Source of the DNA: a virus
DNA: 64,000 nt
Strand: one strand, 5' to 3'
IMG/VR virus record: IMGVR_UViG_3300034520_000200
Coordinates: 1 to 64,000 of that record
Shown: positions 20,988-21,989 of the stretch, piece after piece
Layout: every line of letters begins with the position of its first letter
How positions within the stretch are numbered: the first letter of the stretch is position 1
Position numbers and translations under genes: made by a program
The notes under the pieces: generated by a model
What the model was told of the DNA's origin: nothing
Database searches by the model: none
The model's input: the letters and a program-made list of their open reading frames with translations, nothing else

Positions 20988-21096
20988 CTTTTCACCTCCT
21001 TTCAGAGAAAAAGTAGAGGCACATTTAGTGCCTCTTTTATATTAATGAGGCTGGACAAATTTGTACTAATTCTTCTGCTACTGCCCTTGATTTATT

Positions 21097-21570
21097 TTAT
21101 TGAGCTGGAGTTAAAGCTGGTTCAATAATGGCTGGCAATTGTGCAGCCACTTCTTGCTTAACTTCTTCCTTGGGTTTAACTTCTTGCTTCTTATCAGGTT
21201 TAGATGGTTTGTGCTGTTCTTGGAAAATCTTCCAAGCTTCTTTTAAAGCCATCAAAACTTCTTTTTCATCTTTTGATTTAAGGATGTGAACTAAAGTTCC
21301 AAGATGTTTCTTAGATGCTTCTACTTTTGAAAATGTTTGTAGATTTGGACCAATCTTTTTAATAGTTTCTGCAGAAAGTTTTACATTAAGTTCAAGATAT
21401 ATTATATCATTTTTTGTTTTGACTAATTTGCAAAATCTGTCTGAATCTAGGAAGAAGCTGTTTCCAGTTGCGATAGCTTTTTCTCTTATCCTCTTGTCTG
21501 CCTTTACTAAATTTTTGATTTCCTTTAGGGTCTTATCAAACCCATTTTCTTTTTGAATTTTTTCTGTCAT
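21097..21570 (-). CDS. H(L/M)GT-family paralog 4
   Basis: RFCKLVK..YLELNV..EASKKHLGT; start placed at the ATG after AAGGAGG. Confidence 0.8.
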   Translation of the reverse strand: MTEKIQKENGFDKTLKEIKNLVKADKRIREKAIATGNSFFLDSDRFCKLVKTKNDIIYLELNVKLSAETIKKIGPNLQTFSKVEASKKHLGTLVHILKSKDEKEVLMALKEAWKIFQEQHKPSKPDKKQEVKPKEEVKQEVAAQLPAIIEPALTPAQ

Positions 21571-21989
21571 TATGTTTTCCTCCTTCAAAAATTTATTTAG
21601 GGCAGTAGCAGGAGGATTAGCACAAATTCAAAATTTAAATTCATATTCAATTTTCAAGGTTCTATTATTTTTTATTTTCAAAGGTATTATACCAAAAAGC
21701 TTTCTTGTTGTAAATAAAAATGTTTCTTTCCGAATATGCTTTGTACTCTGTCCTTATGTTTATGTACTCTGTCTCTTTCAGTTTGGGCTCTGTTATTAGA
21801 ACTCGTTACATGTCTGTTGTAGGGCTCCTTATTACGCTGACCCTGACATTTTTGGGCTCTTGAAGAGCAGAGTAAGGGCTCTTTCATCTTTGCAGAAGGG
21901 TTCTGTTACTTGTGCATTAGAGGGCTCTAAAAAACCGAAAAAAATAAGAGGGAATTATTCCCTCTTAATTGTAAAACTGATTTTATCTC

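Follow-up and report, generated by a model that had tools for sequence, protein, structure and literature searches.

Complementary 5′ and 3′ untranslated segments enclose members of an early phage gene family and may close their messages

The gene 1 unit and its two relatives

The window, meaning the whole stretch of 64,000 nucleotides analysed here, is the first 64 kb of the 86-kb IMG/VR virus record IMGVR_UViG_3300034520_000200, whose completeness is put at 54% by CheckV. On its minus strand lies a small early gene, hereafter gene 1, flanked by the two arms of an inverted repeat, one in its 5′ untranslated region (UTR) and the other in its 3′ UTR. The unit is made up as follows, in the direction of transcription (nt, nucleotides; SD, Shine-Dalgarno sequence; CDS, coding sequence):

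21686-21714, minus strand: gene 1 promoter, TTTACA-17-TATAAT with TG, 11 of 12 consensus positions
21651-21662, minus strand: boxA-like 12-mer GAACCTTGAAAA in the gene 1 leader, 22 nt upstream of the 5′ arm
21599-21628, minus strand: 5′ arm, extendable to 21588-21628 (inverted-repeat search and folds)
21610-21616, minus strand: UCCUCCU within the 5′ arm, a perfect complement of the gene's own SD region
21579-21584, minus strand: SD, AGGAGG
21097-21570, minus strand: gene 1 CDS, 157 residues, ATG at 21570 and stop at 21099-21097
21058-21087, minus strand: 3′ arm, beginning 9 nt past the stop codon
21015-21035, minus strand: intrinsic terminator-like hairpin and U run, 22 nt past the 3′ arm

The original prediction, made from the letters of the window, was that the 30-mers at 21599-21628 and 21058-21087 are reverse complements, and this is indeed the case, with three mismatches (27/30). 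Read in the mRNA sense, the 30 positions comprise 27 Watson-Crick pairs, one G-U pair and two C-A mismatches, again as claimed, and every element of the proposed order – promoter, boxA-like motif, 5′ arm, SD, CDS, 3′ arm and terminator – was located on the minus strand. The 5′ arm ends 14 nt before the AGGAGG. In an inverted-repeat search the pair extends to 41 nt at 83% complementarity, 489 nt apart, and is the longest inverted repeat in 20500-22300; it occurs once only in the 86-kb record. When the window was shuffled 100 times with dinucleotides preserved, no shuffle had as many as two matches to the 30-mer. The reality of the repeat around gene 1 is thus beyond reasonable doubt.

Complementary segments of the 5′ and 3′ UTRs enclose two further members of the same gene family. 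The first, gene 2, is a paralogue at 14963-14325 that was found by a DNA search of the record. The second, L011, comes from a metagenome contig and is the sole further locus of the close subfamily for which DNA is available. Their features are:

15056-15084, minus strand: gene 2 promoter, TTTACT-17-TATAAT
15027-15038, minus strand: boxA-like 12-mer GGACCTTGAAAA in the gene 2 leader
14988-15028, minus strand: gene 2 5′ arm, with a perfect 13-nt core at 14999-15011
14325-14963, minus strand: gene 2, the closest paralogue, 212 residues, 58-66% protein identity to gene 1 depending on the alignment
14286-14326, minus strand: gene 2 3′ arm, core at 14303-14315, starting 9 nt past the stop
L011, metagenome contig of 1641 nt: homologue of 230 residues, 39% identity over the best tblastn segment

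The arm pair of gene 2, 41 nt long and 78% complementary, is the next-best inverted repeat of the whole early region when low-complexity sequence is left aside. Its helix has a clean core of 13 bp and an A-U extension of 4-5 bp, 18-19 bp in total. No terminator-like site was found after the gene 2 3′ arm, and the next gene starts at 14263. In L011 the arms lie at 756-784 and 1568-1596 (29 nt, 86%) and form the strongest of the contig's 13 inverted repeats; the helix, of 29 bp with one G-G and one C-A mismatch, spans from 20 nt before the homologue's start codon to 70 nt past its stop. The ribosome-binding site (RBS) of the next gene directly abuts the L011 3′ arm, and this RBS is able to pair with CCUCCUU beside the L011 5′ arm. 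In both paralogues the 3′ arm starts exactly 9 nt past the stop codon, although their C-terminal tails differ by 55 residues.

Covariation and specificity of the pairing

Beyond a short G/C-rich core the arm pairs of gene 1, gene 2 and L011 cannot be aligned with one another. Helix pairs were registered from the inner end and compared over 13 positions. Between gene 1 and gene 2, six pairs are identical, seven are changed on both sides and none is broken. Gene 1 and L011 have four identical pairs, seven changed on both sides, one changed on one side and one unpaired, the corresponding figures for gene 2 and L011 being three, eight, one and one. Since three homologues keep a gene-enclosing helix while the letters of their arms differ, these comparisons argue strongly that the base pairing itself has been selected.

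The strength of the helices was set against several controls. In dinucleotide shuffles of the 3′ flank, none of 1000 reached the observed helix score at any of the three loci; the shuffle maximum was 17.5 against an observed 24.5 for gene 1, and 17.0 against 17.5 for gene 2. A uniform helix scoring was also applied to 18 loci of the family, with the 306 non-cognate pairs of flanks serving as the null. Gene 1, L011 and gene 2 score 24.5, 23.5 and 17.5, respectively, and the other 15 loci 7.0-14.0. The non-cognate pairs have a 99th percentile of 15.0, exceeded by only the three helix loci of the 18, and a maximum of 17.5. A comparison among the 25 early genes of the phage is similar in design, each 5′ flank being paired with each 3′ flank. 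For gene 1 and gene 2 alone is the best-pairing 3′ flank that of the gene itself (-47.6 and -34.5 kcal/mol); non-cognate duplexes have a mean of -18.8 kcal/mol (standard deviation 5.4). The cognate duplex of gene 1 (z -5.3) ranks first in both its row and its column.

No gene-enclosing helix was found in the other 15 readable loci of the family, which include L012-L015, from related IMG/VR phages, and the other paralogues. In a maximum-likelihood tree all three helix genes fall into one clade of 14 rows, with support of 86/73, and all 15 helix-less loci lie outside it; its other 11 rows are proteins represented in databases without their DNA. On the simplest reading, the ancestor of this clade already had the helix, which was retained while both arms were rewritten.

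Pairing in RNA and the possible role of the helix

We consider it likely that the pairing of the arms acts in the mRNA. An action in RNA is favoured by the position of both arms within the transcribed unit, each at a constant place with respect to SD and stop codon, by their inverted orientation in three of three cases, and by the lack of a site common to the two repeat pairs of the one genome, such as a recombinase would require. In folding predictions of the 691-nt gene 1 transcript the helix is found within both the minimum free energy and the centroid structures (z -6.14, 20 shuffles), and the mean predicted pair probability of the helix is 0.98 in gene 1, 0.98 in gene 2 and 0.92 in L011. 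Duplex energies in the mRNA sense and antisense are -44.2 and -49.0 kcal/mol for gene 1, -31.1 and -29.9 for gene 2, and -51.6 and -39.6 for L011. The original prediction had observed that the mismatch pattern of gene 1 does not by itself favour the mRNA strand, and the energies agree; the two C-A mismatches in the mRNA sense are G-U pairs on the opposite strand.

The arms might instead serve at the level of DNA, either as recombination sites of an invertible segment, flipping RBS and CDS relative to the promoter, or as paired operators for autoregulation by the encoded protein. With 13-30 bp on either side of 0.5-0.8 kb, the inverted repeats match invertons in geometry, and the gene 1 mismatches, as just seen, do not speak for the mRNA strand. 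There is also a lead towards a DUF5655/YjbR-like fold for the protein (see below), and co-evolution of paralogues with their operators could give gene-specific arms. However, the three arm pairs have no recognisable site in common, whereas one recombinase would serve both pairs in one phage; invertons differ in this respect from the two paralogues, whose arm pairs share no recognition sequence. Neither of the recombinase domains Resolvase (PF00239) and Phage_integrase (PF00589) was found in the 86-kb record, itself 54% complete. All the pairs, moreover, are inverted, 29-41 nt long and placed in the transcribed region rather than on the promoter, none of which is needed by operators.

Inversion had been allowed for in the original prediction, and was checked in the contigs of four DNA runs, which belong to one study and are probably the source samples. 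Across both genes these contigs run in the same order as the window, and at the arms no joint changes strand, which is weak evidence against inversion as contigs drop rare forms. Among the sequencing runs listed as containing this DNA, none is of RNA. Contig joints that skip from 17571 to 18995 and from 20650 to 21536 have sides of 20-21 letters, and were set aside as repeat or foreign matches. With no sequence common to the arm pairs, no recombinase found in the incomplete record and a single orientation in the contigs, inversion of the DNA is unlikely, and we regard a role of the arms in DNA, of either kind, as very improbable.

The interpretation that we prefer, with moderate confidence, is that the helix is an element of mRNA stability and processing which closes the whole cistron into a loop. 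In the early mRNA the two arms would pair with each other as a long-range helix that links the 5′ UTR, at 20-35 nt upstream of the start codon, with the 3′ UTR immediately past the stop; inherited and under selection, this helix would characterise one clade of the multicopy phage family. Lying next to the SD and at the 3′ end, the duplex would protect the message against decay by RNase J1 (a 5′ exonuclease) and RNase Y of Firmicutes and by 3′ exonucleases, on the model of the 5′/3′-UTR interaction of hbs described below. In addition, the helices of gene 1 and L011 may be plausible substrates for the RNase III of the host, whose cleavage would cut the cistron from a longer early transcript and leave it with paired ends. 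Helix formation in RNA, cutting or protection, and the nuclease that acts are all things that we infer from the sequence.

An RNase III stalk requires about two turns, 20 bp or more, and the helices of gene 1 and L011, at 29-30 bp, are therefore long enough. That the enzyme actually cuts them is possible, if slightly on the doubtful side. No RNase III domain was found encoded in the phage record. Early transcripts of Bacillus phages, SP82 among them, are substrates of RNase III; the sites of SP82 and T7 are local intergenic hairpins and are not known to enclose a cistron. RNase III of Bacillus subtilis cleaves many mRNA duplexes formed across more than 100 nt (PMC11780869), and these sites are not known as UTR-to-UTR clamps conserved by covariation. 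As to covalent circularisation of the message, which the original prediction had entertained, the analysis offers no support for it.

Several observations weigh against a closing of the cistron for stability and processing. The strand asymmetry is not decisive, since only L011 favours the mRNA strand and gene 2 is neutral. The covariation comes from three sequences only, and the clade support of 86/73 is not strong. Gene 2, taken alone, is marginal because its score is tied by one of the 306 non-cognate pairs and its shuffle maximum is 17.0; the weight of its helix comes from homologous placement. Its clean core of 13 bp is also short for RNase III. Finally, 15 paralogues or homologues have no helix, which is therefore not required for the family as such. 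Four of these helix-less members have a G/C-rich hairpin directly before the SD (L012:2130-2165, L013:2105-2147, L014:2210-2243 and L015:2405-2447) and a terminator of their own. Such a hairpin may be an alternative, local form of 5′-end protection.

By analogy, the closest experimentally tested counterpart is the hbs message of B. subtilis, an mRNA and not an rRNA. As described by Braun, Durand and Condon (2017; PMC5737220), a 14-nt segment of the hbs 5′ UTR base-pairs with a fully complementary stretch lying immediately before the terminator, at -19 kcal/mol, and compensatory mutants show that this pairing restrains RNase Y cleavage and affects 3′ decay. The likeness is that of a Firmicute-type message which encodes a small protein, presumably an abundant one, and in which the cistron is enclosed and the 5′ segment lies upstream of a strong SD. 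The terminator position is matched by gene 1, at 22 nt past the arm, whereas gene 2 and L011 have no terminator after the arm. The hbs helix is shorter and weaker than those of gene 1, gene 2 and L011, which measure 30, 13-19 and 29 bp at -44, -31 and -52 kcal/mol. Here, by contrast, we have a phage early gene family with a boxA-like leader, two of its three loci running on into the next gene, and known from sequence alone.

The original prediction likened the unit to an rRNA precursor. The likeness of layout stands: the arrangement parallels the leader and processing stalk of rrn operons, with a long-range helix around a whole functional RNA, a boxA-like motif before the 5′ arm and, in gene 1 and L011, a helix of RNase III size. 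What does not carry over is an exclusive link between motif and stem, as the motif also stands in units without a stem, and the helix of gene 2 is short for RNase III. In its strict form this explanation would have the boxA-like motif load NusB/S10 and Nus factors, the polymerase deliver the 5′ arm to the emerging 3′ arm, and RNase III or Mini-III cut the stalk. The order of promoter, boxA-like motif, 5′ arm, cistron and 3′ arm, seen in gene 1 and gene 2, is what this would produce. The motif GRACCTTGAAAA has five matches in the window against 0.03 expected, all of them on the minus strand and in early leaders upstream of the RBS. The L011 leader contains a stretch that has its 9-nt core, UCUUUGAAA, in common with the B. 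subtilis boxA-like consensus. A comparable boxA-like RNA, that of B. subtilis rrn, is reported to be bound by BsNusB (PMC13753749). It has been proposed in a review that elongation complexes on rrn operons retain the leader and may bring its arm to the complementary sequence beyond 16S, so forming the RNase III site (PMC8632103); the rRNA likeness would depend on a mechanism of this kind.

Against such strict mimicry, the motif heads three early units without an enclosing helix (leaders at 13256, 18841 and 19591), and is therefore not specifically tied to the helix. Its spacing from the arm varies, at about 15, 22 and 88 nt. Compared by eye with the boxA-like consensus of B. subtilis rrn, it agrees at only 9-10 of 13 positions, and the boxA of the host may differ from that of Bacillus. 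Going by these leaders, the motif is best described as a general feature of early leaders, compatible with the helix and not bound to it. The RNA enclosed here is, furthermore, a translated mRNA with an SD, unlike the rRNA of the stalks as far as these are described in the sources cited. We therefore take strict mimicry to be unlikely. It is slightly less likely still that the phage clade borrows host rRNA maturation as a whole, a Nus/S10 chaperone reading through early terminators and RNase III excising a long-lived, translation-competent ‘panhandle’ mRNA; if true, this would be a phage message made like a pre-rRNA.

Two further boxA-like arrangements were seen. A second such motif, CCTTGAAAAC (L011:1512-1525), containing CCUUGAAAA, lies in the L011 3′ UTR, before the 3′ arm. 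The other is a hairpin in the gene 19566 leader that stands immediately before the boxA-like motif (window 19608-19652, minus strand), an order which recalls the rrn leaders of B. subtilis.

A different kind of role concerns translation. The UCCUCCU of the gene 1 5′ arm is perfectly complementary to the AGGAGGA of the gene 1 SD, and it is precisely in this UCCUCCU that the long helix has its two C-A mismatches. The 5′ arm might act as an anti-SD that masks the SD in the nascent leader until it is captured by the 3′ arm, so that only complete transcripts are translated; in a variant, cleavage within the helix would remove the anti-SD. In leader-only folds the predicted probability of an unpaired SD is 0.02 for gene 1, 0.29 for gene 2 and 0.15 for L011; when the 3′ arm is added it rises to 0.83, 0.95 and 0.32, respectively. 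In L011, CACCUCCUU abuts the 5′ arm. The effect in L011 is small, however, and the prediction is a thermodynamic one with assumed transcript starts. The baseline, too, is undistinctive, as 12 of the 25 early genes of the phage have a probability below 0.3 in leader-only folds and are thus similarly masked. We accordingly treat an SD-masking switch as no more than a minor rival or an added layer; on its own it strikes us as quite improbable.

Pairing between a 3′ UTR and an SD is known from icaR of Staphylococcus aureus, where it is described as blocking translation and creating an RNase III substrate (Ruiz de los Mozos et al. 2013; PMC3868564). This type of pairing was considered for gene 1 and rejected, the 3′ arm pairing upstream of the SD. 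Compared with what is described for icaR, the partner of the 3′ arm here lies at least 14 nt upstream of the SD and could otherwise mask it, and folding predicts an effect on translation that is neutral or positive, the SD being freer with the 3′ arm than without.

The gene family, the early region and wider significance

The family of gene 1 is rare, with six hits in a 90%-clustered protein database and 76 representatives in a 50% library (E up to 0.001). It is also multicopy: three IMG/VR phages have four, two and five copies, and the 86-kb record has six paralogues, gene 1 and gene 2 included:

6307-6750, plus strand, window
13299-13706, minus strand, window
14325-14963, minus strand, window (gene 2)
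21097-21570, minus strand, window (gene 1)
24100-24465, minus strand, window
79306-79710, plus strand, record

Zinc-ribbon N-termini are seen in some members. Searches of viral contigs for related loci, with gene 1 or alignment A2 as query, found nothing, and neither did searches of genome contigs. Gene 1 has no Pfam match even at E up to 1 and no PHROG family, and a profile search of the PDB with the protein gave best values of only E 0.057 and 0.74. A DUF5655/YjbR-like fold was suggested by the Atlas only (feature score 0.87, TM 0.63-0.69, for a model with pLDDT 0.55), and DUF5655 (PF18899) had no match among 72 family members at E up to 0.01. A DUF5655-like fold for the gene 1 protein is therefore a lead only.

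The window is A+T-rich, and the large terminase of the phage is about 32% identical to those of Gordonia phages. Neither blastn of window 20000-23000 nor tblastn with the gene 1, L028 and L011 proteins found a match among GenBank phages. Rfam recognised no family in the window at the gathering score, and a tRNA search of it found none. The minus strand from about 12 to 24.5 kb carries some 25 small genes whose ribosome sites are strong (AGGAGG), and resembles the early, accessory arm of a large phage. On this strand, between about 15050 and 22330, are about nine early promoters of near-identical sequence, with the consensus AGAAACATTTTTATTTAC..N..TGATATAAT, then TTGAAAATAAAA. Their similarity suggests one promoter class for the whole early arm.

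Some smaller repeats were seen in the same region. Heptamers of the AGAGCCC / CAGAGCTC type are clustered between transcription units at window 21740-21930 (minus strand), and the same type is found in the related IMG/VR phages (L012-L015, downstream of the homologues) and, in L011, upstream of the promoter. A phage factor could bind to them. An identical 28-nt palindromic terminator-like sequence occurs twice in the early region, at 18462-18489 and 18945-18972, 455 nt apart. The RBS and start region of gene 1 has short copies, 89-93% identical, at 20654-20682 (minus strand), 7578-7612 (minus strand) and 8815-8845 (plus strand).

End-to-end pairing of bacterial mRNAs is known, and has been tested in a few cases, hbs and icaR among them. 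A literature search, with subscription journals outside its scope, gave no phage message closed by 5′/3′-UTR pairing, judged by title, among the matches listed. What would be new here are closed phage messages that are kept by covariation down to 39% protein identity, with helices of up to 30 bp and a boxA-like leader. If the closing of these messages is borne out, phages of Firmicute-like hosts would build stable or excisable early messages by closing them. The leader motif and the two arms would then form a compact and portable module for the action of RNase III, RNase J1, RNase Y and Nus factors on closed mRNAs.

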